DNA of 41,337 nucleotides from positions 1-41,337 of IMG/VR virus record IMGVR_UViG_3300038829_000038; one strand, 5' to 3'. Positions 1-41,337 of the stretch are shown in pieces (the stretch's first letter is position 1; each line of letters begins with the position of its first letter). A program made the translations under genes and the position numbers. This DNA comes from a virus. Below the pieces are notes generated by a model, which saw nothing but the letters and a program-made list of their open reading frames with translations, had not been told where the DNA came from and ran no database searches.

Positions 1-94
1 ATGCGCCGCCCCCTTGAGGCATGTACGCCCCACAGTATTGACAAATATACCCACCATACTGTTGAGACATACGAACAGGATGACTGCATGCCAC
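1..94. repeat. Direct terminal repeat, left copy (identical to 41244-41337)
   Basis: Read directly. Both ends spell atgcgccgcccccttgaggcatgtacgcc...caggatgactgcatgccac. This implies a closed circular assembly or terminal redundancy with a unique length of 41243 bp. Confidence 0.95.
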
Positions 95-103
95 TGTGCT
101 CAT
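1..103 (-). CDS. 35-aa zinc-ribbon mini-protein crossing the linearisation point (5' part here; last 5 nt and the stop are at 41243-41239)
   Basis: ATG at 103 follows GGGAGGTGAtagca. The hand translation across the joined ends is MSTVACSHPVRMSQQYGGYICQYCGAYMPQGGGAS, with stop TAA at 41241-41239. It shows a C-x-H ... C-x-x-C pattern. Confidence 0.45.
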   Translation of the reverse strand, partial: MSTVACSHPVRMSQQYGGYICQYCGAYMPQGGGA

Positions 104-117
104 TGCTATCACCTCCC

Positions 118-154
118 TTCATGCTCCCTGTGAAGTGGCGAGGGCGACTTATAC
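118..154 (-). promoter_or_regulatory. Duplicated leader/promoter-proximal element, copy 1 (twin at 41115-41154)
   Basis: 118-144 is identical to 41115-41141 (ttcatgctccctgtgaagtggcgaggg), followed by a gapped match. On the minus strand it reads TATAAG(153-148)..GCCCTCGCCacttcacAGGGAGcatgaa, directly 5' of the ATG at 103. Confidence 0.4.
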
Positions 155-237
155 AGTAGAAATACTGCTAGGGTTCATTCACCTTTCGGCTCTCCCCCAC
201 GGTGGCGCCCCTCGCCGTGCTTCGCTTGAACTATGCG

Positions 238-516
238 TTACAAAATCTCGTTCAAATTATCAATCTGTGCATGAAGACGGATGCAGAAGTTACGAATATC
301 AACCGTTGCTTCAAGCACGCCGAAGTTCGGTGGTGAACCAGCTATGGATGCTTCAGGAATAGGGTTAGACGTAATCCGACCCGTTAGATACTCGATCTTA
401 CCTTCAAGCGATTTTAAAGCAGTCAATGCCTCGTTCGCTATCGTCGTTATTGAATCCTGTTTAGTTGTCTTGGGCTTGTCAAGCTGAACGCCCTGCACTG
501 CATTATATGCACTCAT
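238..516 (-). CDS. Hypothetical protein (92 aa)
   Basis: ORF-track ORF. ATG 516 is preceded by AAGGAGGacaact. No motif recognised. Confidence 0.6.
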   Translation of the reverse strand: MSAYNAVQGVQLDKPKTTKQDSITTIANEALTALKSLEGKIEYLTGRITSNPIPEASIAGSPPNFGVLEATVDIRNFCIRLHAQIDNLNEIL

Positions 517-566
517 AGTTGTCCTCCTTGGTTAGGTACCGCACTCGCCCTGCTTCGCCAGTCTCG

Positions 567-716
567 CTACCTTTCGTCTTCCTCAATTGACTCCCCCCGC
601 TCCAGCAATTCCACCCTGAGCATCAACTCGATCAATTCCCTGTCTGGCATTTTGTGCGTGTCCTCTTCCTGCTGCACTCGTCGCTGCACTTCGGCATTGA
701 GTTCTGATCGTGTCAT
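567..716 (-). CDS. Small acidic hypothetical protein (49 aa, below the track cutoff)
   Basis: Hand translation is MTRSELNAEVQRRVQQEEDTHKMPDRELIELMLRVELLERGESIEEDER. ATG 716 is preceded by AAAGGAGGctaac. Confidence 0.5.
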   Translation of the reverse strand: MTRSELNAEVQRRVQQEEDTHKMPDRELIELMLRVELLERGESIEEDER

Positions 717-731
717 GTTAGCCTCCTTTGG

Positions 732-1109
732 TTAAAGCTCCGCCAGCGAGACGCTACAACGCGGTCGATTCGGCTGTACGGGAAACGTCGTCCACTGGAC
801 ACACTTGACTTGAGCATCATCCCGCACGAGCCCGACCTTCTCGATCAAATGGCACAGGGCATCGAGCAACCCAGGCACATCCCGGCGTATGTTATCGCCA
901 GGGACATAATCCACGGTCATCGTGACAGGGCCAGAGAATTCAGTCACCGGGTACGGGATCTTCCCCATCGCCTCATCCCGCCACGCCTTGAACCGCTTCC
1001 CAGGATACCGCTTGCCCGTGCGGGTAATCTGTACCGCGTTCTTCCCGCTTGGGATTTGACAATCGAGGATGAACATGTATGGCAGATCTACTATGATCTC
1101 CCTTTTCAT
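732..1109 (-). CDS. rusA: RusA-type Holliday junction resolvase
   Basis: IRRDVPGLLDALCHLIEKVGLVRDDAQV matches the RusA core (RRRDLDNL..AFDAL...G...DDAQV in E. coli RusA). I moved the start to MKREIIV (ATG 1109), which overlaps the erf stop as ATGA. Confidence 0.8.
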   Translation of the reverse strand: MKREIIVDLPYMFILDCQIPSGKNAVQITRTGKRYPGKRFKAWRDEAMGKIPYPVTEFSGPVTMTVDYVPGDNIRRDVPGLLDALCHLIEKVGLVRDDAQVKCVQWTTFPVQPNRPRCSVSLAEL

Positions 1110-3009: not shown

Positions 3010-3765
3010 CTATTCCTCACCTTCTCCTGATCCAGGTATAGCCAAATACTCATAGTGCTTCATGACAAAATACTCCATCATGGTCATAAATTCTTCCATG
3101 ATGTATTTCTTGACCCCTAACGGTTCATCCGGTTTCATCTGCGCGGTTAGGTCTGACAGAAATGCCGTATCAATGCCCTGCAACTGGCGGCGCAAGTCGG
3201 CGTAGTTGTCCATCTTCAAGGAGTGAATTGACAGGCCGATTTTTAGGAGTTCAATACCCGTAATGAAAAACCCTTTCTTGACGTACTTCATCACGCGCAA
3301 CATCGAGCAGATCGGAAACATCGTGCCAGTATGGAACACTAATCTCCGTTGCCCGATATGCTTAAAGAAGTCGTCTCCAAAAACAAACCCTTCTTCTTTG
3401 CCGTCTTCACGGAATTGGTACGCTGCCATGCAGACAGTGAAATCGTAGTAATTAAAGATGGTTTTCGGATCTCCGAAGAGATCAGGCATGACAATCAACT
3501 GATACGGCTTCTCCTGCTTGCCGAGATGGTAGCTCTTGGACGTGTCTGTTTCGTTTGCTAATGTCCCATTGATTCCAAACCACGTCACGGCCTGGTGACA
3601 GTCTTTCGCATCCCTGAAATAGATGTCCCAATCTCGGATCTTCTGCCCTGTGAAAAGCGCTGTAATCGCACCGCCTGCGATAATCGCATTGCAGGAACGA
3701 AGGCCCTTGATTCCTTCAGGGCCAAGGTATTTGAGCAATAAGTACTCTTCTCGTTTCGTGTTCAT
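3010..3765 (-). CDS. Nucleotidyltransferase-fold protein (distant CCA-adding/poly(A) polymerase head-domain-like)
   Basis: IIAGGAITALFTGQKIRDWDIYF fits hG[GS]-x9-13-Dh[DE]h. YYDFTVCMAAY resembles the RRDFTINA block. AAAGGGG lies upstream of ATG 3765. My hand count of 3301-3400 gives 45% GC, against 54% for 9601-9700. Confidence 0.45.
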   Translation of the reverse strand: MNTKREEYLLLKYLGPEGIKGLRSCNAIIAGGAITALFTGQKIRDWDIYFRDAKDCHQAVTWFGINGTLANETDTSKSYHLGKQEKPYQLIVMPDLFGDPKTIFNYYDFTVCMAAYQFREDGKEEGFVFGDDFFKHIGQRRLVFHTGTMFPICSMLRVMKYVKKGFFITGIELLKIGLSIHSLKMDNYADLRRQLQGIDTAFLSDLTAQMKPDEPLGVKKYIMEEFMTMMEYFVMKHYEYLAIPGSGEGEE

Positions 3766-3766
3766 T

Positions 3767-4381
3767 TCAACCCCTTTGTGTGTAGATGTATTCCTCGCGT
3801 ATAGTCACATCGGCCCGACCATCCAACATCCCGGTTTTGGCCAGCGCGTTGAACCGTGGCATGTTCAGATCAAACAGATTCGGGAATGCTTTCATGAGTG
3901 AGTCCAGGTCCTTCGGTTCGTACACCTTCTTGACCGTCCTCGTTTGTGTGGTCCCCGCTTGCGTCTCTATGCTCTTCGGTGGAGCCTGCACCACCGGCGC
4001 TACCTTCAAGACCACCTCTGAGAGATCTTTCCCTTTCTCATCGGCCTTGGCCAACTTCTTGGCGTTGTCGGCGTCAATCTTCGCCTGGATCTTGGCTTGC
4101 TCCATCCTGGCGAGCCGATCCTGCTCACGGTCCCATTCGCTCATCGCCGCCTGCATCTTCTTTTCAGCCGCCTCGCATTTCTTGATAAACTCATCAAACG
4201 GCACTTTGGCATTGTCCCAGGCGGTCTTAAGTGGCCGGCAGGTTGTCTCCTTGTTCGCCTCTTCCTGTTTCCGAAAGGCTCTGATTGCGTCCCATAGGTC
4301 CGCCGCCTTTTGCCGATCCGGCGCCACTTTGACCGTGAGCGCGTTTGCCTTTTCCAGTAGTGCAATTGCCTTGCTATCCAT
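3767..4381 (-). CDS. Hypothetical coiled-coil protein (204 aa)
   Basis: Long ORF rich in K/E/A. Position 4393 in the track is a GTG; the first ATG is at 4381. Confidence 0.6.
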   Translation of the reverse strand: MDSKAIALLEKANALTVKVAPDRQKAADLWDAIRAFRKQEEANKETTCRPLKTAWDNAKVPFDEFIKKCEAAEKKMQAAMSEWDREQDRLARMEQAKIQAKIDADNAKKLAKADEKGKDLSEVVLKVAPVVQAPPKSIETQAGTTQTRTVKKVYEPKDLDSLMKAFPNLFDLNMPRFNALAKTGMLDGRADVTIREEYIYTQRG

Positions 4382-4399
4382 AAGAACACCCACATTTAG

Positions 4400-4630
4400 T
4401 TAAAAGAAATAGTCCGCTGTCCGATCCGCCTCTCGTGCCTCAAACCTGGCCCGATCACCCTCATACACCCCCGAGCGATGCTTGAGAATGAAATCTTCAA
4501 GCGCCTCCGCTGCCCACGTCGAGGGTTTGGTCTGGCTCTTTTGGGCCTCCGCGATGATCCGCTTTACCACCCACGGTTTTGTGATCGTGATACTCTCCCC
4601 CGTTTCGTATCCGATCTTTGGTCGTCCCAT
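4400..4630 (-). CDS. Possible ribbon-helix-helix DNA-binding protein (76 aa)
   Basis: The N-terminus MGRPKIGYETGESITITKPWVVKRI (basic stretch then a beta-strand) followed by helices is RHH-like. The start shares TAATG with the upstream mini-gene. Confidence 0.4.
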   Translation of the reverse strand: MGRPKIGYETGESITITKPWVVKRIIAEAQKSQTKPSTWAAEALEDFILKHRSGVYEGDRARFEAREADRTADYFF

Positions 4631-4940: not shown

Positions 4941-5185
4941 CACTCCATCCCCTTTCGCCTCGAATTCGCTTTCCAGTCGCGAAAGATCTGCTCACGGTAG
5001 TATTCAGTCCGTACCATCTCGTGATATTCCCGCCACAGATCCCGCACCACCCACCAGAGCACCCACGCCAGAAGCACCTTCAGAAGTTGCCCCACCGCCA
5101 CGAGGCCGCCGACAAGAAATGCAGTCAAGCCGCCGATCCAGAAGGCGAGCAAGATGAGCCCTTCAAACCATGTCAGGCGCGTCAT
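4940..5185 (-). CDS. Small membrane protein (81 aa, two predicted TM helices)
   Basis: MTRLTWFEGLILLAFWIGGLTAFLVGGLVAVGQLLKVLLAWVLWWVV. ATG 5185 overlaps the pentapeptide gene stop as ATGA. Confidence 0.6.
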   Translation of the reverse strand: MTRLTWFEGLILLAFWIGGLTAFLVGGLVAVGQLLKVLLAWVLWWVVRDLWREYHEMVRTEYYREQIFRDWKANSRRKGME

Positions 5186-5952
5186 GGTTTCACCCCGGCA
5201 AACGCCCCACGCATATTCGCCAACCACTGATCGATCCAGTCCAGCGCCAGCTTGGCCGCTTGCGAGGTCTCAGGCGTGTCACCTGGTTTGATCGCAAGGA
5301 AGAACCGCTCGGCTGGACGGTTGCTATTAGGCGAGAGTGAGGGAATGTCGTTATAGGTACAATGACGAGCCTTAGCGAGCGTCCCGACGAGGCAGGCGCA
5401 GGCCCCTTTGTACGTGCTCCCATCAATCTTACCATCGAGAATGGCCTGCCGGAGTTCAGCCACCTCAGCAGGGGACGCTGAGAGCACCGCCCAAATGTCA
5501 TCACGGATAGGGGTGAGATTAGCGCCCCTGAGAGAAGCACCCGTGAGAGTAGCGTACGTGAGAGAAGCACCCGTGAGAGAAGCACCCGTGAGATTAGCGT
5601 CCCTGAGAGAAGCGCCCCTGAGATCAGCGTCTCTGAGATCAGCGTCTCTGAGATCAGCGCCACTGAGATCAGCGTCTCTGAGATCAGCACCCGTGAGAGC
5701 AGCGCCCGTGAGAGTAGCGCCCGTGAGATCAGCACCCGTGAGATTAGCGCCCCTGAGAGTAGCGCCCCTGAGATCAGCGCCCCTGAGATCAGCACCCGTG
5801 AGAGTAGCGTACGTGAGATTAGCGCCCCTGAGAGTAGCGTCCCTGAGAGAAACGCGATTTTCAACCGCCGCTTCTACTGCGAGCCGTAGTGACTCCGTTT
5901 CGAGGACAAACATCACCTTAAATGACAAATGAGATCGAATTTCAACCTTCAT
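5182..5952 (-). CDS. Pentapeptide-repeat protein (about 22 near-ideal A[DNTS]L[RT][GDY] units plus a ~100-aa C-terminal domain)
   Basis: Repeats run ...SLRDATLRGANLTYATLTGADLRGADLRG... and are encoded by a 15-bp periodicity at about 5512-5850. ATG 5952 (MKVEIRS) shares TAATG with the upstream gene, and GAGGAG lies upstream. Confidence 0.85.
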   Translation of the reverse strand: MKVEIRSHLSFKVMFVLETESLRLAVEAAVENRVSLRDATLRGANLTYATLTGADLRGADLRGATLRGANLTGADLTGATLTGAALTGADLRDADLSGADLRDADLRDADLRGASLRDANLTGASLTGASLTYATLTGASLRGANLTPIRDDIWAVLSASPAEVAELRQAILDGKIDGSTYKGACACLVGTLAKARHCTYNDIPSLSPNSNRPAERFFLAIKPGDTPETSQAAKLALDWIDQWLANMRGAFAGVKP

Positions 5953-6107
5953 TACTTCCACTCCTCTAGCAAGGCATCGAGTCTTTTCAGCTCTTGCTGC
6001 TCTTCTGGATTAAACATATCCTTATCTGCGCGATTGACGAATGTGACCCCCTCTTCGATCAACACCAACCGCATATACTTCTTGAGTAATACGTAGTGAT
6101 CCATCAT
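5952..6107 (-). CDS. Hypothetical 51-aa protein (below the track cutoff)
   Basis: Hand translation is MMDHYVLLKKYMRLVLIEEGVTFVNRADKDMFNPEEQQELKRLDALLEEWK. AAGGAGG lies upstream, and the start overlaps the upstream stop as ATGA. Confidence 0.5.
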   Translation of the reverse strand: MMDHYVLLKKYMRLVLIEEGVTFVNRADKDMFNPEEQQELKRLDALLEEWK

Positions 6108-6256
6108 GCCTCCTTCTCGTCTTGGATTTTCGCATCAGCATAGAGGTCAATAACATCAAGACTGCATTCACGGCAGAGTCTTTGATGATACACTGGCGCA
6201 TCGCACATCTCGCAATAGTACCCCTCATCGTCAATCCACTGCTCAGGTACGCTCAT
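6104..6256 (-). CDS. 50-aa zinc-ribbon mini-protein (below the track cutoff)
   Basis: Hand translation is MSVPEQWIDDEGYYCEMCDAPVYHQRLCRECSLDVIDLYADAKIQDEKEA. ATGA overlaps occur at both ends. Confidence 0.5.
   Translation of the reverse strand: MSVPEQWIDDEGYYCEMCDAPVYHQRLCRECSLDVIDLYADAKIQDEKEA
6110..6147. repeat. 38-nt exact repeat, copy 1 (twin at 7027-7064)
   Basis: ctccttctcgtcttggattttcgcatcagcatagaggt occurs at both sites. On the minus strand it encodes ..LYADAKIQDEKE plus the AAGGAG Shine-Dalgarno of the next gene. Confidence 0.9.
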
Positions 6257-6588
6257 GGCTTCCCCTTAAACATAATAGGCCGTGTTGGGCATAAATCGTT
6301 ATCCGCGTGTATCCACCAACGCCCTTTCGGCCACTCACCCTCGTAATGACAATCGAAAATGCCTGTGCTGCCAGGTTCGATCACATGGAATATCGATCCA
6401 TCCTTAGGGCAATACGATGCATCCCGCCACCCTAGCTCTTTCAGTCGTATCCACGCCTCAAACATGGTGTTGATGGCGTCTTGCTCCGTTGGCATTTTCA
6501 ATGCTCGCTGCGTATCGTCTTTCTGGATATTATCAAGCAGAATCTTGGCATCGTTATAATTTAGTTTCCTTTCATGCACGGTACTCAT
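6253..6588 (-). CDS. Hypothetical protein (111 aa)
   Basis: Start set at MSTVHERK (ATG 6588, AAGGTG upstream). The longer track ORF would run into the repeat gene. Confidence 0.6.
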   Translation of the reverse strand: MSTVHERKLNYNDAKILLDNIQKDDTQRALKMPTEQDAINTMFEAWIRLKELGWRDASYCPKDGSIFHVIEPGSTGIFDCHYEGEWPKGRWWIHADNDLCPTRPIMFKGKP

Positions 6589-6637
6589 CGCTGCACCTTT
6601 AGATTTGTAATCCAATCTTTGAGTTCTTTGGCTTTCA

Positions 6638-7021
6638 TCACTTCCCCTCCTTGTATTCGTCCGTCCCGTCCACAATGCAATGCGTGCTGGATTTCCATTC
6701 AATCGTGACGTTGCCGTAGGCCTCGATAACGCCCTCGTCCCAGAGCTTGGCGCCCTCGTCCCAGAGCTTGGCGCCCTCGTCCCAGAGCTTGGCGCCCTCG
6801 TCCCTGAGCTTGGCGCCCTCGTCCCAGAGCTTGGCGCCCTCGGCCCAGAGCTTGGCGCCCTCGTCCCAGAGCTTGGCGCCCTCGTCCCTGAGCTTGGCGC
6901 CCTCGTCCCAGAGCTTGGCGCCCTCGTCCCTGAGCTTGGCGCCCTCGTCCCTGAGCTTGGCGCCCTCGTCCCTGAGCTTTAAGTAGATACTCCACGCGAA
7001 CTGTATCGATATTGTTTTCAT
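6638..7021 (-). CDS. Heptad tandem-repeat protein (12 x KL[RW][DA]EGA)
   Basis: MKTISIQFAWSIYL, then 12 heptads, then VIEAYGNVTIEWKSSTHCIVDGTDEYKEGK. GAGAAGGAGAGATAATG gives a strong SD. Caveat: every frame is open across the repeat. Confidence 0.55.
   Translation of the reverse strand: MKTISIQFAWSIYLKLRDEGAKLRDEGAKLRDEGAKLWDEGAKLRDEGAKLWDEGAKLWAEGAKLWDEGAKLRDEGAKLWDEGAKLWDEGAKLWDEGVIEAYGNVTIEWKSSTHCIVDGTDEYKEGK
6728..6979. repeat. Tandem repeat, 12 x 21 bp (gcgccctcgtccc[a/t]gagcttg)
   Basis: Read directly. Units are near-perfect. The a/t position toggles Trp/Arg, and one unit carries cgg instead of cgt. Confidence 0.95.
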
Positions 7022-7026
7022 TATCT

Positions 7027-7064
7027 CTCCTTCTCGTCTTGGATTTTCGCATCAGCATAGAGGT
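7027..7064. repeat. 38-nt exact repeat, copy 2 (twin at 6110-6147)
   Basis: Same 38-mer as copy 1. Here it lies between the stop of the 7096..7308 gene and the start of the repeat gene. Confidence 0.9.
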
Positions 7065-7095
7065 ATTCGTTATCGTACCCATTGTTTGTTGCCCA

Positions 7096-7308
7096 TCACA
7101 CCTCCTCCTTCTTCGGCTCGAACTGCAACTTGGTCGCGGCGGTGTAGAACCCAATGTCATACCGATCTTGCTCGTACGCCTCACCGGAGAAGCGAATAGG
7201 CCCAGTCCAATGAGGAAAGGTCTTGCGATCCGTAAACCCCTGCCGTTCCGCCCTGGCCCCGCGCTCCTCACGGATCAACCATTCTAAATGCTCGTCATAT
7301 GTCACCAT
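7096..7308 (-). CDS. Hypothetical protein (70 aa), first gene of the leftward early block
   Basis: ATG 7308 is preceded by AAAGGGGGTGAcgat. A 313-bp non-coding region lies upstream. Confidence 0.6.
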   Translation of the reverse strand: MVTYDEHLEWLIREERGARAERQGFTDRKTFPHWTGPIRFSGEAYEQDRYDIGFYTAATKLQFEPKKEEV

Positions 7309-7621
7309 ATCGTCACCCCCTTTCTTTTGAAAGACCCAACTACTTCAAAATCTGCTCCAGTGCCCAATACTCCGGGTTGGTGAACCCCGCCACCACCTCC
7401 AATTTGTAATGCTAGGGCATACAGCAAGGTCGGTGCCAGAAATAACTGTGTGGTTTATCAAGATGTTAGGAATGGCGAGGCGCACTGACGGCGCGGCAGT
7501 GGGGCGCAATGGCGCCCCATGTGGCGGTTTAGTAGACAGGCTACCATGCTATGTGCGTGATATTGTGAGGGTATGGAGAGGCACGAGACGTGCTAGATGT
7601 AGAAGCAACAAGGAGGGCCTT

Positions 7622-7960
7622 ATGAAAACGCTCTTATTGAGTATCAGCCTGTTGCTCGTGACATCTTGCGCATGGGATCTTGATGGGCACCAGTACGCCG
7701 AATGGTATCAAACGCTCTCGCCATCACAGCAAGCCCAGGAAGATCAGCGGCGACATGAGCGGAGAATTGCCGCGATGCAGGCGTATGGCATGATGAATAT
7801 GGGGAGACTGGCAGCCCCGGCGTATACCCCACCGCTCTATACTGAACCTCGCTATAGAGCGCCTGTCGGGTCAGATCCGCTCCCGTCCTATGTGCCGCAG
7901 AGGTCACAGCGATGCACGAGTAACGTGGTCGGCAGTTACATCTACACGAACTGCTACTGA
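7622..7960 (+). CDS. Lipoprotein (112 aa), opposite-strand moron
   Basis: MKTLLLSISLLLVTSC is a signal peptide with lipobox VTS|C. AAGGAGGgcctt lies upstream of ATG 7622. The upstream part of the track ORF has no coding support. Confidence 0.7.
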   Translation: MKTLLLSISLLLVTSCAWDLDGHQYAEWYQTLSPSQQAQEDQRRHERRIAAMQAYGMMNMGRLAAPAYTPPLYTEPRYRAPVGSDPLPSYVPQRSQRCTSNVVGSYIYTNCY

Positions 7961-7964
7961 CCGC

Positions 7965-33983: not shown

Positions 33984-34164
33984 ATGGCCATCACCAAAGC
34001 CGAAGGTATTTCCTCTTTGCAATTGTCTAAAGAAATCGGCATTACGCAAAAGTCGGCGTGGTTCATGTTGCAGCGACTCCGTGCGGTACGTTGACGAGTT
34101 CACCTTCCGACTGAACGACGGCAATGTGCAACGGCACACACTGGAGCGGTTGGACAGCTTTGTC
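33984..34164 (+). pseudogene. Remnant of an IS1595-family transposase (HTH fragment fused out of frame to the C-terminal tail; DDE core deleted)
   Basis: The first frame reads MAITKAEGISSLQLSKEIGITQKSAWFMLQRLRAVR* (33984-34094). A +1-shifted frame from 34081 reads RYVDEFTFRLNDGNVQRHTLERLDSFV. Both blocks are characteristic of IS1595/ISXO2-like transposases, which are normally about 300 aa. Confidence 0.7.
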
Positions 34165-34304
34165 GCGGTGTGGATACTCCACTCCTGCTACGCGGTGTTC
34201 TGTGCGTGGTGGAAGGAAGGCAAGGCGGAAGTGATCGTTGAAGAGATGGAGCACACCGACCCAATCGTGGTCCAGGCCCATAAGGTGAATCCATGGAGGC
34301 GGCT

Positions 34305-34460
34305 ATGATCCTCATCCGCTTCCCAACCCGAGAGGCCATGTTGCAGTACCTGCTGGCTGAGAGCATCAAAGTACGCGCCGGCCAGCCCTGTTCAACTCTC
34401 ATCCTCGACCGAAAGGAGCCCCATGAAGATCACATTGATCCTCGACGTGCCGAAGATTAA
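34305..34460 (+). CDS. Possible 51-aa ORF, plus-strand island
   Basis: GGAGGcggct upstream of ATG 34305. It overlaps the next ORF by 38 nt. Confidence 0.3.
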   Translation: MILIRFPTREAMLQYLLAESIKVRAGQPCSTLILDRKEPHEDHIDPRRAED

Positions 34461-34581
34461 AACCGTGAAAGGCGGACAGGAGTTTGCAACCATCCTTGCC
34501 GAGCATATCGTCGAAACATTTAACGATGACACCAGCATCAAGAGCGTGTTGACATCCGTCCCGAAAGAGAGGGCGTCATGA
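34423..34581 (+). CDS. Hypothetical 52-aa protein, plus-strand island
   Basis: GAAAGGAGcccc upstream of ATG 34423. Translation is MKITLILDVPKIKTVKGGQEFATILAEHIVETFNDDTSIKSVLTSVPKERAS. Confidence 0.5.
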   Translation: MKITLILDVPKIKTVKGGQEFATILAEHIVETFNDDTSIKSVLTSVPKERAS

Positions 34582-38633: not shown

Positions 38634-38654
38634 CCTCACTACCGGCTGATGCTG

Positions 38655-38753
38655 TCACGCTCCTCCGCAATCAGCATCAGCCGCATCTGATCGATCATTG
38701 AAATAGCAGGCTCCAACCATCCGCTCAAACCGATCCGATTTCTTTTGTGTCAT
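38655..38753 (-). CDS. Possible 32-aa ORF (below the track cutoff)
   Basis: AAGGAGcgag upstream of ATG 38753. Translation is MTQKKSDRFERMVGACYFNDRSDAADADCGGA. Its 3' end forms an 11-bp hairpin. Confidence 0.3.
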   Translation of the reverse strand: MTQKKSDRFERMVGACYFNDRSDAADADCGGA

Positions 38754-39075
38754 CTCGCTCCTTGCAAGGTAGGCGAGGGGTCGCACACCGTTCTGACCTG
38801 CCCCATTGAAGGAGCCGGTAGGTAGCGTCTTCTGTTGTCACCCCTTTCGAGGCCCCTCGCCATCTCCCTCTTACCCTATTGGTTATTTAGGTAATCGTTC
38901 GCACTTGTAGCTATGACTCGATTGGCTGTCTCCGAATTTCTCCACGCTACGTACCATCGCTTGCTCGGCGATGATACACAGATCCTTACTCGTAAATTAC
39001 CCAATGGCCTGACTCATGTTTCCACCTGTCGGCCACATACTGATGAGTAACAGTACCCACATAAACCCCCCTTGG

Positions 39076-40382: not shown

Positions 40383-40795
40383 TTCACCACCATCCTGCTC
40401 ACGCCCAACTCAGCCGCTATCTTCCGAATATCATCCGCTCCATCTTGGGCCGTCACGAGCTGCGCGTCATGGACCTGCTTCGCCAATTCTAGCTTGTCGG
40501 CCTTAAAACGGACTTCCTTTTGCCGCTGTAGCTGTTGGGTATAGTTGGCGTCGATCTTGGCGTTGAGTGTTTTAATCTGCGTCTCTAGATCAGACCGCTT
40601 CTGCTCTTCTTTCCAATGGCATTCTTTATCACCAATTCTCACCGAGAGCACAGACTGAGGCTTCGGCTTCGTCTCGACCTCATGCCAGACCATCAGCATC
40701 CCCAGCGCCCCAGTGAGAACCCCTAGCATATACAACCCCAGCCCCTTGAAATAGGGGATCAGAGCTTCGCGTAGTTCTCGCCAATACTGGTTCAT
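40379..40795 (-). CDS. Membrane-anchored coiled-coil protein with a C-terminal HTH-like tail (138 aa)
   Basis: TM helix GLGLYMLGVLTGALGMLMVW, then a coiled-coil, then DIRKIAAELGVSRMVV at the C-terminus. Confidence 0.5.
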   Translation of the reverse strand: MNQYWRELREALIPYFKGLGLYMLGVLTGALGMLMVWHEVETKPKPQSVLSVRIGDKECHWKEEQKRSDLETQIKTLNAKIDANYTQQLQRQKEVRFKADKLELAKQVHDAQLVTAQDGADDIRKIAAELGVSRMVVK

Positions 40796-41112
40796 GAGTG
40801 CTCCTCCTTATCTAGACAGAGCAGGCGTTCAACCTGCTCCATGCAATGCAACCAATCTTTCTCATATTTTGGGAGCGGGCATCCGTTTTGTAGGCCGTGT
40901 AACTGCCCTAATAGTTCCCGCAACCGTACTATCTCCTGGCGATACTCGGCATTGGCCGTTTGCATCAGCTTCACATCTGCACGCAGACCACGACTCTCCT
41001 CGACTTGCTCATCAATAATACTCCGCTGCTCGGCGTCGTGGGCAAGTAACAAGTCTCGAAATCCCGTAAACATTTCATGATACGACAGGAATTCAACATC
41101 TTTTCGTGTCAT
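40792..41112 (-). CDS. Hypothetical protein (106 aa), first gene after the main intergenic region
   Basis: ATG 41112 is preceded by AGGGAGcatgaaca, which lies inside the duplicated leader element. Confidence 0.6.
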   Translation of the reverse strand: MTRKDVEFLSYHEMFTGFRDLLLAHDAEQRSIIDEQVEESRGLRADVKLMQTANAEYRQEIVRLRELLGQLHGLQNGCPLPKYEKDWLHCMEQVERLLCLDKEEHS

Positions 41113-41114
41113 TG

Positions 41115-41154
41115 TTCATGCTCCCTGTGAAGTGGCGAGGGGCGAACTTAATAC
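41115..41154 (-). promoter_or_regulatory. Duplicated leader/promoter-proximal element, copy 2 (twin at 118-154)
   Basis: 41115-41141 is identical to 118-144. The minus strand reads TATTAA..CCCCTCGCCacttcacAGGGAGcatgaaca-ATG. Confidence 0.4.
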
Positions 41155-41158
41155 CAAT

Positions 41159-41195
41159 GTAGCGCCCGTCCTTCGGGGCGGGCGAGGATTGAAAC
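41159..41195 (+). CRISPR. Solitary CRISPR-repeat-like unit (type I-C-like); not an array
   Basis: The sequence is GTAGCGCCCGTCCTTCGGGGCGGGCGAGGATTGAAAC. The stem pairs 41163-41171 with 41176-41184 (8 Watson-Crick pairs plus 1 G-U) around a TTCG loop, followed by the 11-nt tail AGGATTGAAAC. It is a single copy, with no spacer/repeat continuation and no cas genes. Confidence 0.55.
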
Positions 41196-41243
41196 ATGAT
41201 GTCCACTCGCACCAGCCCGCCAACTCCTTACGGCGTGGTTAGG

Positions 41244-41337
41244 ATGCGCCGCCCCCTTGAGGCATGTACGCCCCACAGTATTGACAAATATACCCACCAT
41301 ACTGTTGAGACATACGAACAGGATGACTGCATGCCAC
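41244..41337. repeat. Direct terminal repeat, right copy (identical to 1-94)
   Basis: Read directly. Confidence 0.95.

Follow-up and report, generated by a model that had tools for sequence, protein, structure and literature searches.

A solitary CRISPR repeat, assigned to type I-C, beside the end of a groundwater phage genome: a candidate RNA anti-CRISPR

The window (i.e. the whole stretch of DNA that was analysed, 41,337 nucleotides) is a complete linear, terminally redundant tailed-phage genome, with genes for a terminase, a portal protein, a major head protein and a tail fibre. Its physical ends are marked by a 94-bp direct terminal repeat; a contig from another assembly begins exactly at 41337, and a 6.8-kb contig from another assembly stops exactly at position 1. 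The left genome end carries a recombination module (an exonuclease, an endonuclease VII, an Erf-family annealing protein and a RusA-like resolvase), and no integrase or other sign of lysogeny was found in the phage. A possible counter-defence neighbour is the gene at 3010-3765, for which a Gad2-type match is on record; the Pfam scan performed here did not reproduce that match. The features discussed below are as follows.

1-94, no strand: left copy of the 94-bp direct terminal repeat, physical genome end (identical to 41244-41337)
1-739, minus strand: left part of an accessory cassette, with the orphan ORFs 238-516 (92 aa) and 567-716 (49 aa) (comparison with L112)
120-152, minus strand: copy 1 of a duplicated motif, 25 nt inside the left terminal repeat (core count)
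40792-41112, minus strand: first gene downstream of the repeat on the coding strand, 106 aa (ORF)
41113-41337, no strand: right part of the cassette (comparison with L112)
41117-41152, minus strand: copy 2 of the duplicated motif, core CTCGCCACTTCACAGGGAGCATG, carrying the ribosome-binding site of the first gene and abutted by the repeat (core count)
41159-41195, plus strand: solitary CRISPR repeat unit, assigned to type I-C, Rfam CRISPR-DR9 (Rfam, copy count, array identity, cas neighbours)
41163-41184, plus strand: predicted repeat hairpin, 9-bp stem (41163-41171 with 41176-41184, one G-U pair) and UUCG loop 41172-41175 (fold prediction, Rfam)
41185-41195, plus strand: 11-nt 3' tail AGGAUUGAAAC, would-be crRNA 5' handle (position from the fold)
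41196-41243, plus strand: unique 48-nt stretch from the repeat to the right terminal repeat, not repeat-like; the RNA that would carry the handle after a cut
41244-41337, no strand: right copy of the 94-bp direct terminal repeat, physical genome end (identical to 1-94)

The 37-nt element that a sequence-only reading had singled out was confirmed by direct reading of the plus strand, where positions 41159-41195 are GTAGCGCCCGTCCTTCGGGGCGGGCGAGGATTGAAAC. Between it and the right genome end lie 142 nt, and it precedes the first gene by 46 nt. It is intergenic: in L031, a contig from a different run, it falls between called genes, and the ORFs that overlap it have no coding signal. Its surroundings had been described as the main intergenic region and as the largest non-coding region of the genome. 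The first description needs correction, since the genome is linear with real terminal repeats, which makes the region its right-terminal untranslated end; the second is not established, since 7309-7964 and 38640-39075, both without coding signal, are as large or larger. A plus-strand ORF starting at 41196 is called in L031, with the GAGGA of the repeat as a possible ribosome-binding site; it has no coding signal and was rejected as a gene. A small minus-strand ORF across the terminal repeat, with a C/H pattern suggesting zinc binding, would be whole only if the genome were circular or concatemeric; having an ambiguous coding signal, it was likewise set aside. The 48 nt at 41196-41243 had no match in IMG/VR and none in 1.06 Mb of fetched loci.

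On its other side the repeat abuts the duplicated motif, the core of which occurs exactly twice in the window against 0 expected; the likeness of the two copies reaches the edge of the repeat. As a finder of phage relatives the motif was abandoned, since it gave 0 matches in IMG/VR and its single metagenome match (L121) is unrelated repetitive sequence. The shorter GGCGAGG, which had been pointed out as a motif repeated in other control regions, is indeed in modest excess (17 copies against 9.1 ± 3.2 expected), and the remark is retained as a minor caveat only. The 106-aa product of the first gene (40792-41112) has no PHROGs, Pfam or PADLOC match. The gene has homologues in related phages, with 91% nucleotide identity in L112 that begins at the ATG.

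The element matches Rfam family RF01322 (CRISPR-DR9) at 55.5 bits (gathering score 45; E = 1.6e-10), over model positions 1-37 of 37 and on the plus strand only; this family match is far beyond chance. The window holds one copy of the 37-mer, even when up to 3 mismatches are allowed (shuffles gave 0 matches). Within 150 bp on either side no further repeat, full or partial, was found, the local alignment score being no higher than in shuffles, and Rfam gave no other plus-strand repeat in 40900-41337 (E <= 10). Similarly, no cas genes were found among the ORFs of the window that were scanned. The earlier claims of exactly one copy without repeat-spacer continuation and of an absence of cas genes are thus upheld, the latter for the ORFs scanned. 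A CRISPR array or mini-array consists of at least two repeats and a spacer, and the phage element is neither; the alternative once offered, a decayed viral mini-array, finds no support because the flanks hold no degenerate second repeat.

The plus-strand RNA of the repeat is predicted to fold with −19.7 kcal/mol (z = −3.1), the minimum-free-energy and centroid structures being in agreement, and this fold reproduced the 9-bp stem with one G-U pair, the UUCG loop and the tail described earlier. The structure is the Rfam consensus structure of CRISPR-DR9, and among related repeat variants the upper stem changes on both arms (GCGCC/GGCGC, GTCC/GGAC, GCCC/GGGC). The fold has the hairpin followed by an 11-nt 3' tail that is expected of a type I-C repeat. 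The predicted Cas5c cut would fall between 41184 and 41185, and this cut site and the 11-nt handle fit published biochemistry (PMC8524198).

Identity of the phage element to array repeats extends over 37 of 37 positions in 25 genome loci, 12 of them from Nitrospira/Nitrospirota. The arrays contain up to 42 exact copies of the 37-mer and are found in Nitrospira, Sulfuricellaceae, Hydrogenophilales and others. In L029, L008 and L019 they lie directly downstream of genes for Cas8c/Csd1, Cas7/Csd2, Cas4 and Cas1c, on the same strand, and wherever cas genes flank arrays of this 37-mer the type is I-C and the strand is that of the repeat. The same repeat family is labelled I-C in a candidate list based on CCTyper (PMC10651486). 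By these matches, the element is a genuine type I-C CRISPR repeat. Its initial designation as type I-C-like is supported by the identity to repeats of arrays adjoining type I-C cas genes, and the searches gave both CRISPR-DR9 above threshold and exact array repeats in 25 loci. Two of the loci, L022 and L005, are leader-plus-one-repeat ('empty') arrays in which the same 37-mer occurs once, and the single repeat of L013 has a type I-E repeat as its neighbour. No prophage or relative emerged from the single-repeat genome loci, there being no similarity outside the repeat. The 'empty' host arrays have a conserved leader like that of true arrays (L007 versus L022), whereas the phage copy has no leader-like sequence; no resemblance to a host-type leader was found upstream of it.

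SRUFinder (PMC10651486) defines a solitary repeat unit (SRU) as an intergenic sequence that matches a known repeat with identity and coverage of 90% or more each and has no full or partial repeat within 100 bp. The phage element shows 100% identity and 100% coverage (25 genome loci), is intergenic and has flanks that are clear for 150 bp. It is an SRU as defined in that study, in line with what had been proposed for it as a single copy on a phage with no cas gene among the ORFs scanned.

The source sample came from a Nitrospira-rich groundwater well, and the tetranucleotide usage of the phage is closest to that of Nitrospira loci. A k=31 contig from the same project (L030) breaks exactly 30 nt into the repeat, from which we infer further occurrences of this repeat, in other contexts, within the same run. 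None of the 273 spacers from the 25 fetched host loci matched the phage beyond chance, and this phage was not found next to an array in these loci. The most likely host is Nitrospira, among whose members are complete ammonia oxidisers, or another groundwater bacterium with this I-C system; the link of phage to host is circumstantial. No such repeat was found among the cultured phages in INPHARED, and the sole match in PLSDB was an 88% match in a Deinococcus plasmid.

The repeat is located inside an 870-bp cassette that is missing from the relative L112 (80-91% nucleotide identity): homology to L112 ends at 740 and restarts at 41112, and L112 has 37 nt instead. Inserted counter-defence genes typically look like such a cassette. 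A search of 5.8 billion proteins found no homologue of the 92-aa ORF 238-516, and the idea that it encodes a Tad2-like protein was dropped for want of any similarity. No recognised acr or aca gene was found nearby, and the neighbouring small ORFs are without PHROGs, Pfam or PADLOC match. The neighbouring gene has no relatives in IMG/VR; its homologues led to L112-L120, and one of 80 Erf-bearing loci (L032) shares the gene order. No Rfam CRISPR repeat was found in these relatives (L032, L112-L120), and the element is not conserved.

Coding signal above 0.1 was obtained for 50 of 141 minus-strand ORFs versus 3 of 177 plus-strand ORFs. Both the flanking genes and nearly all of the coding signal lie on the strand opposite to the repeat-sense one. 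A consensus scan found no sigma-70-like promoter or intrinsic terminator on either strand, and a promoter scoring scan gave at most 4.3 bits upstream of the repeat versus about 9.6 bits for the best sites elsewhere in the genome. In a small survey of comparable 37-nt I-C units in IMG/VR, 6-7 were co-oriented with neighbouring genes, 1-2 were antisense and 2 were ambiguous. Two caveats had been attached to the element at the outset, and both remain: neither scan found a promoter for the repeat-sense strand, and the antisense orientation weighs somewhat more than was then stated, given the coding-signal counts and the small survey of I-C units.

[quoted passage not shown] In the preferred reading the element is a repeat captured by the phage that may act as a type I-C Racr decoy. 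In its favour stand the family match, the exact host repeat beside type I-C cas genes, the solitary intergenic state on a phage, the accessory cassette, the possible Gad2-type neighbour, the source sample with the other contexts of the repeat, the published precedents and the fit to Cas5c biochemistry. Because its orientation is antisense and no promoter was found, we hold this reading tentatively, at somewhat less than an even chance; the lack of coding signal in the plus-strand ORF after the repeat, of a recognised acr or aca neighbour, of conservation and of a firm host link also counts against it. In the mechanism that we infer, comprising plus-strand transcription, binding and cutting by Cas5c and an effect on immunity, a short plus-strand RNA would run outward through the repeat toward the nearby genome end and would fold into the repeat hairpin. 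Host Cas5c would recognise this hairpin RNA and cut it between 41184 and 41185, the 11-nt handle and the non-targeting RNA downstream would load Cas5c and Cas7, and Cascade subunits would be drawn away from genuine crRNAs.

Rather unlikely, though the first rival to be weighed, is a recent footprint without function, i.e. a repeat recombined from a host array into a dispensable terminal cassette and not yet decayed. The perfect identity to the host repeat would fit such an event, as would the lack of the repeat in the closest relatives, the orphan status of the cassette ORF that was searched (92 aa, 238-516), an orientation wrong for co-transcription with no promoter found, and the phage's own exonuclease, endonuclease VII, Erf and RusA-like proteins. 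However, the capture is clean, with exactly one complete repeat and no spacer fragment. Upstream, the phage-native duplicated motif reaches the repeat edge, whereas sloppy recombination would carry pieces of spacer. It also speaks against a footprint that unrelated phages have independently gained solitary repeats of the CRISPR-DR9 family, and that SRUs are a class with a preference for intergenic regions and a match to host subtypes (PMC10651486).

The orientation of the element suggests a further reading, to which we assign a low probability. A minus-strand RNA, arising as an early transcript or by read-through of a concatemer junction, would be an 'anti-repeat', the exact complement of the host I-C repeat. 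Pairing would begin at the free 11-nt handle, would involve all repeats of the host pre-crRNA and would mask the Cas5c recognition site, such that crRNA maturation would be blocked or double-stranded RNA open to cellular RNases would be made. Evidence of expression (coding signal) exists for the minus strand only, and the element lies upstream of the first gene at a distance of 46 nt. The first 11 nt of the antisense RNA are unpaired in the fold, and the predicted duplex reaches −84.2 kcal/mol against −33.2 kcal/mol for the two hairpins, with a toehold of −13.7 kcal/mol. For recognition Cas5c relies on the nucleotides that directly follow the cut, and it does not process antisense repeats (PMC8524198); since Cas5c needs these nucleotides, masking them would be effective in principle. 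However, no precedent for the mechanism was found, the scans located no minus-strand promoter that would place a start upstream of the element, both RNAs are stable hairpins, which would slow pairing, and Cascade assembled beforehand would escape the effect within one lytic cycle. Furthermore, most comparable units are in sense orientation, which points to Racr action as the general route. Should the anti-repeat exist, its position by the first gene, 142 nt from the genome end, would place it among the first sequences expressed.

Similarly improbable is a role at the DNA level, the other alternative offered earlier, in which the 37-bp match would be a homology handle that lets phage proteins recombine with host arrays, with a split array, integration or the pick-up of a spacer as the outcome. 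The perfection of the identity is needed more by recombination than by mimicry, and such a function would be independent of orientation. The four proteins at the left end (exonuclease, Erf-family annealing protein, RusA-like resolvase and endonuclease VII) would supply the means, and integration into arrays is mentioned in the literature (PMC10651486). Yet no integrase or sign of lysogeny was found, none of the fetched host loci has this phage beside an array, 37 bp is near the lower limit for efficient recombination and the benefit to a lytic phage is unclear.

Viral elements of the guide type exist, type I-C included (bioRxiv 10.1101/2024.10.29.618823; PMC11656645). That the present element is one of them (a mini-array or a Cracr, with the repeat and the downstream 35-48 nt aiming host Cascade at a competing phage or at a host cas promoter) is very improbable. 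After a cut by Cas5c the downstream RNA would have the correct 5' handle, but there is no second or degenerate repeat, and no seed of at least 10 nt was found in 144 kb of host cas/array loci (host promoters partly covered). The three 9-nt matches are unremarkable against 1.1 expected, none being preceded by a TTC motif, and the downstream sequence is unmatched in IMG/VR and in the fetched loci. To count as a Cracr, an element should have a part resembling a spacer that matches the promoter of a host cas or toxin gene at 9 or more PAM-proximal positions, and sequence resembling a repeat should bound this part; no second repeat-like sequence was found here. Finally, the chance that assembly made a chimeric join of phage to a host CRISPR array is negligible: the k=31 contig L030 does break inside the repeat, as a 37-nt sequence common to arrays would cause at k=31, but the k=127 contig L031 spans it (142 nt on one side, 508 nt on the other) with 100% identity and both flanks are phage, the first gene on one side and the terminal repeat common to the left end on the other, so that the join is a real junction and not an assembly artefact.

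If the element is an ordinary Racr it brings no new principle, the class being already known, and it would be one more example in the catalogue of more than 2,000. It nevertheless provides an uncultivated phage, from a groundwater well rich in nitrifiers, with a candidate for counter-defence. Through its exact match the repeat also predicts a specific host, namely a carrier of type I-C, most likely Nitrospira; the records searched showed no other virus-host link for this group. An antisense unit beside a physical genome end is also a test case for orientation, since the identity of the expressed strand would tell whether solitary repeats can work in ways beyond sense-strand mimicry.

Compared with known systems, viral mini-arrays and Cracr/crlRNAs are likewise virus-borne host-type repeats that exploit host Cas proteins; they require both a matching target and a spacer closed off by a second, often degenerate, repeat, neither of which was found here. 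The same in concept is RacrIF1 of a Thiocystis violascens prophage (type I-F), an intergenic solitary repeat that gives a small RNA tying Cas proteins into aberrant complexes (PMC10651486). It belongs to another subtype with another processing enzyme (Cas6f, which stays on the hairpin), whereas in type I-C Cas5c binds the handle, so that the RNA following the repeat would be the site of the aberrant complex (PMC8524198). RacrIF1 also has a mapped native promoter, whereas none was found for the unit in the window.

Within type I-C, RacrIC1 of a Bifidobacterium pseudocatenulatum prophage inhibits type I-C and restored phage infectivity against it (PMC10651486). Like the element described here, it consists of one phage-borne type I-C repeat, accompanied by neither spacers nor cas genes, in which the hairpin is followed by an 11-nt tail of the ...GGAUUGAAAC type. 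It differs in that it sits 11 nt downstream of acrIC5 and is co-transcribed with it, whereas here no acr gene was recognised, the repeat is antisense and a promoter was not found; moreover, the repeat of the window is a 37-nt variant with a long stem instead of one of 32 nt, and it is a candidate Racr. A further counterpart is an I-C SRU candidate already listed at 7151-7187 of IMGVR_UViG_3300028803_000029 (L003; Supplementary Data, PMC10651486). It scores 53.8 bits against CRISPR-DR9, the family of the window's repeat, and agrees with that repeat at the 5' end, the 3' end and the 5' stem arm; five bases in the loop and 3' arm are different. The phage that carries it is unrelated (64% G+C), and its unit is co-oriented with the flanking genes whereas that of the window is antisense. 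It, too, is solitary on a true phage fragment, which encodes a portal/adaptor, a protease and a major head protein.

The identity of the element close to the right end of the window as a CRISPR repeat is certain. It occurs once in the window, even with up to 3 mismatches allowed (shuffled sequence gave 0 matches), and its plus-strand RNA folds into a 9-bp stem (41163–41171 paired with 41176–41184, one G-U pair) closed by a UUCG loop, with tails of 4 nt on the 5′ side and 11 nt on the 3′ side (−19.7 kcal/mol, z = −3.1; the reverse complement folds more weakly, at −13.5 kcal/mol). Both the sequence and the hairpin described in the sequence-only reading were thus confirmed. Among Rfam families, RF01322 (CRISPR-DR9) matches it on the plus strand over model positions 1–37 of 37 with 55.5 bits (gathering score 45), the only match above gathering score in the whole window. 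The Rfam consensus is identical at both ends (5′ GUAGCGCCCG, 3′ CGGGCGAGGAUUGAAAC); departures are confined to the upper stem and loop, where pairing is kept. The features on which the argument turns are as follows.

41159–41195, plus strand: solitary CRISPR repeat, sequence GTAGCGCCCGTCCTTCGGGGCGGGCGAGGATTGAAAC
1–94 and 41244–41337: 94-bp direct terminal repeat, identical copies
120–152 and 41117–41152, minus strand: duplicated motif with a 23-nt perfectly conserved core CTCGCCACTTCACAGGGAGCATG, exactly two occurrences

When 185,579 species genomes were searched for the exact 37-mer, 25 loci were found, the majority of which are true arrays (42, 34, 24 and 21 exact copies in L019, L011, L024 and L008, respectively; 50 copies at ≤6 mismatches in L016). 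Twelve of these loci are labelled Nitrospira, Nitrospiraceae, Nitrospiria or Nitrospirota, the others including Sulfuricellaceae, Hydrogenophilales, Rhodocyclaceae, Elusimicrobiales and Desulfobulbia. In L029, L008 and L019, the genes directly upstream of the array match NCBIfam models for Cas8c/Csd1, Cas7/Csd2, Cas4 and Cas1c far over the cut-offs and share the strand on which the repeat reads GTAGCG...GAAAC; the same reading direction is supported by the degenerate leader-distal repeat of L018. What had been called a 'type I-C-like' repeat is therefore an exact, not an approximate, type I-C repeat. Since an identical 37-nt repeat occurs in several phyla (Nitrospirota, several Proteobacteria families, Elusimicrobiales, Desulfobulbia and Troglogloeales, with I-C cas genes where checked), its distribution suggests that one type I-C system has recently spread by horizontal transfer. 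Three of the loci depart from the array pattern. In the Nitrospira contig L013 (880–983) a single copy of the type I-C repeat is preceded, at a distance of 25 nt, by a type I-E-like repeat GTGTTCCCCGCGCGAGTGGGGATGAACCG, perhaps through an odd junction or a chimeric assembly. In L022 (6180–6338) and L005 (minus strand, ~3778–3814) one repeat follows a conserved array leader; these two resemble empty arrays, which might be misread as solitary repeat units.

The window encodes a DnaB-type helicase, an HNH endonuclease, a large terminase, a portal, a major head protein, tail proteins and an exonuclease/endonuclease VII/Erf/RusA-like module, a gene set which identifies it as a tailed-phage genome; G+C content is 55.5% and no tRNA genes were found in it. 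An independent k=127 assembly of another run gave one contig that stops exactly at 1 and another that begins exactly at 41337, both 100% identical to the window. Because contigs break at these positions and 94 is, to our knowledge, no recognised assembler overlap length, these are taken as physical ends, and the phage appears to have a linear, not circular, genome with 94-bp direct terminal repeats. Several other regions deserve mention. A 259-aa pentapeptide-repeat protein (5182–5961, minus strand; Pfam PF00805, E = 7e-39) is encoded by ~30 tandem 15-nt units (tandem repeats 5469–5918); proteins of this type can mimic DNA, so this product may serve in counter-defence. Some 16 near-perfect tandem 21-nt units (TCGTCCCAGAGCTTGGCGCCCTC register) at 6667–7021, within ORFs 6253–6702 and 6699–7271, code for a 7-residue repeat. 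The 251-aa product of 3010–3765 (minus strand) is labelled Gad2 (PF26128, anti-Gabija) in the protein collection's precomputed Pfam hits; our own Pfam scan of this product did not reproduce the match, and PHROGs gave a weak nucleotidyltransferase match. Tad2-like genes stand in the same neighbourhood of three more distant phages with homologues of the first gene (L114, L115 and L117). Between 37225 and 39595, paralogous segments of 25–50 nt recur ~425 and ~1,050–1,090 nt apart and include repeated gene starts (reverse complement of TCATGATGGCTCCTCTGG), which suggest a family of duplicated small early genes.

From the repeat it is 142 nt to the right end; on the other side, 46 nt separate it from the first minus-strand gene (41112–40792), of which it lies upstream. 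In L112, a close relative, the RusA-like protein shows 88% identity and the nucleotide sequence of the first gene 91%, and 37 nt (L112 4128–4164) separate the two genes; in the window, read in concatemer order, the distance between them is 870 nt (739–1 plus 41243–41113). An 870-bp stretch thus replaces 37 nt of a relative at 80–91% nucleotide identity, and by this comparison the repeat sits in an accessory cassette. Besides the repeat, the cassette holds the terminal repeat, both copies of the 23-nt core motif and two small ORFs, one of 49 aa and one of 92 aa (238–516), an orphan with 0 homologues among 5.8 billion proteins. The motif copies flank the concatemer junction, one per side, and each terminates at a ribosome-binding site; its candidate roles are early promoter or leader, operator and packaging signal. 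A further ORF of 35–38 aa is whole only across the concatemer or circle junction (112–1 joined to 41243–41239, minus strand); it has a strong ribosome-binding site, shows a C-x-H...C-x-x-C pattern and is a candidate gene of doubtful coding status.

The repeat is indeed solitary, as had been claimed: no partial repeat above shuffle level was found in the 150-bp flank on either side, no other plus-strand Rfam match at E ≤ 10, and no resemblance of the upstream flank to host-array leaders. On every sequence feature tested it agrees with a solitary repeat unit. Array, mini-array and viral CRISPR-like regulatory RNA (Cracr) identities were rejected: there is no second repeat, and no target was found in IMG/VR or in the fetched loci. 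A k=31 phage contig from run ERR977417 (L030) opens, at its positions 1–30, with exactly 30 nt (k−1) of the repeat, which is the signature of an assembly-graph branch; from this break we infer that the same repeat is also present in other contexts, presumably arrays, in that run.

The phage contigs L030 and L031 come from project PRJEB10139, which one paper cites for Nitrospira bins from groundwater-well 'pasty iron sludge'. Tetranucleotide correlation with the phage, computed per 7 kb, was 0.77–0.85 for Nitrospira loci, 0.63–0.80 for Sulfuricellaceae and 0.69–0.78 for others, which weakly favours Nitrospira; the 273 spacers of the fetched arrays gave 0 phage matches. Nitrospira is the most likely host, and any carrier of the horizontally spread type I-C system with this repeat is a possible one. 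This link to Nitrospira-type carriers is a main point of interest of the element.

Small RNAs expressed from solitary phage repeats trap Cas proteins in aberrant complexes; RacrIC1 is such an RNA anti-CRISPR against type I-C, and in 83% of prophage units the subtype agrees with that of the host (PMC10651486). RNA anti-CRISPR is the only experimentally established role of such elements. Applied here, a plus-strand RNA through 41159–41195 would fold into the repeat hairpin, Cas5c would cleave it at 41184/41185 and remain bound to AGGAUUGAAAC, and Cas7 would then progressively occupy the non-targeting RNA in the direction of the genome end, with a presumed effect on immunity.

Orientation bears directly on this proposal. 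Cas5c cleaves the sense repeat only (PMC8524198), so a mimic would need plus-strand transcription. The plus strand through the repeat is antisense to everything around it, and nearly the whole coding signal falls on the minus strand (codon-model scores above 0.1 for 50 of its 141 ORFs, against 3 of 177 ORFs on the plus strand), as the sequence-only reading had cautioned. Two of those three, of 75 and 52 aa, lie at 34081–34581 and may form a small unit of divergent transcription where the rest of the genome runs one way. That reading's caution that no convincing sigma70-type promoter is present also stands: consensus scans found no promoter or terminator on either strand, and position-weight scores upstream of the repeat reach ≤4.3 bits, versus ~9.6 for the best sites elsewhere in the genome. 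Given that the DNA ends 142 nt away, an outward transcript would need no terminator. A 68-aa plus-strand ORF (41196–41337 continuing to 159) has an ATGATG start directly after the repeat, whose GAGGA is placed 7 nt before the ATG as a ribosome-binding site, and is called by the gene caller in L031; we rejected it as a gene for want of coding signal (all log-odds ≤0 versus 0.23 ± 0.10 for real-gene pieces).

Other solitary 37-nt I-C-type repeats fetched from IMG/VR were surveyed for orientation. Six to seven are co-oriented with flanking genes (L127, L129, L130, L133, L135 and L003, plus L134), one is clearly (L124) and one probably (L132) antisense, and two are ambiguous (L123 and L126); in this small sample with rough gene calls, co-orientation appears to be the rule, and the present repeat atypical though not unique. 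Its closest parallel is in L124, a 47-kb viral contig whose repeat (4470–4506) runs antisense to the genes on either side and directly adjoins a 465-aa gene at its stop codon. Antisense placement beside a genome end is unusual and another main point of interest. On this orientation evidence we hold the RNA anti-CRISPR as a tentative candidate, at somewhat less than an even chance: of the original proposal, the repeat itself is certain and its function plausible but putative.

Recent neutral capture of the repeat, which would account for its perfect identity to the host repeat, its absence from relatives and the orphan cassette, we consider unlikely, though still worth weighing: just one repeat, a clean one, was taken up, the motif sequence native to the phage reaches right to its edge, and a member of the same family was gained independently by an unrelated phage. 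Improbable, but a further focus of interest, is a minus-strand anti-repeat RNA. The expressed strand carries the complement, in which the first 11 nt stay unpaired, and pairing with a host repeat is strongly favoured (−84.2 versus −33.2 kcal/mol; toehold −13.7); however, we found no precedent and located no early promoter. Equally improbable is a DNA recombination handle, which fits the exactness of the match and the recombination genes that the phage carries; no integrase was found, nor any junction in the fetched host loci. A guide-type element, with neither a second repeat nor a target, is very unlikely, and an assembly artefact scarcely credible, since the k=127 contig L031 runs across the repeat and extends beyond it by 142 nt on one flank and by 508 nt on the opposite one, backing its junctions with long k-mers.

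The RNA anti-CRISPR candidate has one close counterpart in the published candidate list, IMGVR_UViG_3300028803_000029 (7151–7187), the sole entry there of the same Rfam family, labelled I-C, on a contig that we confirmed as a phage fragment. Many other 37-nt ...GAGGATTGAAAC I-C units are in that list, and by its sequence the present repeat would add one member to this known class of solitary repeat units.
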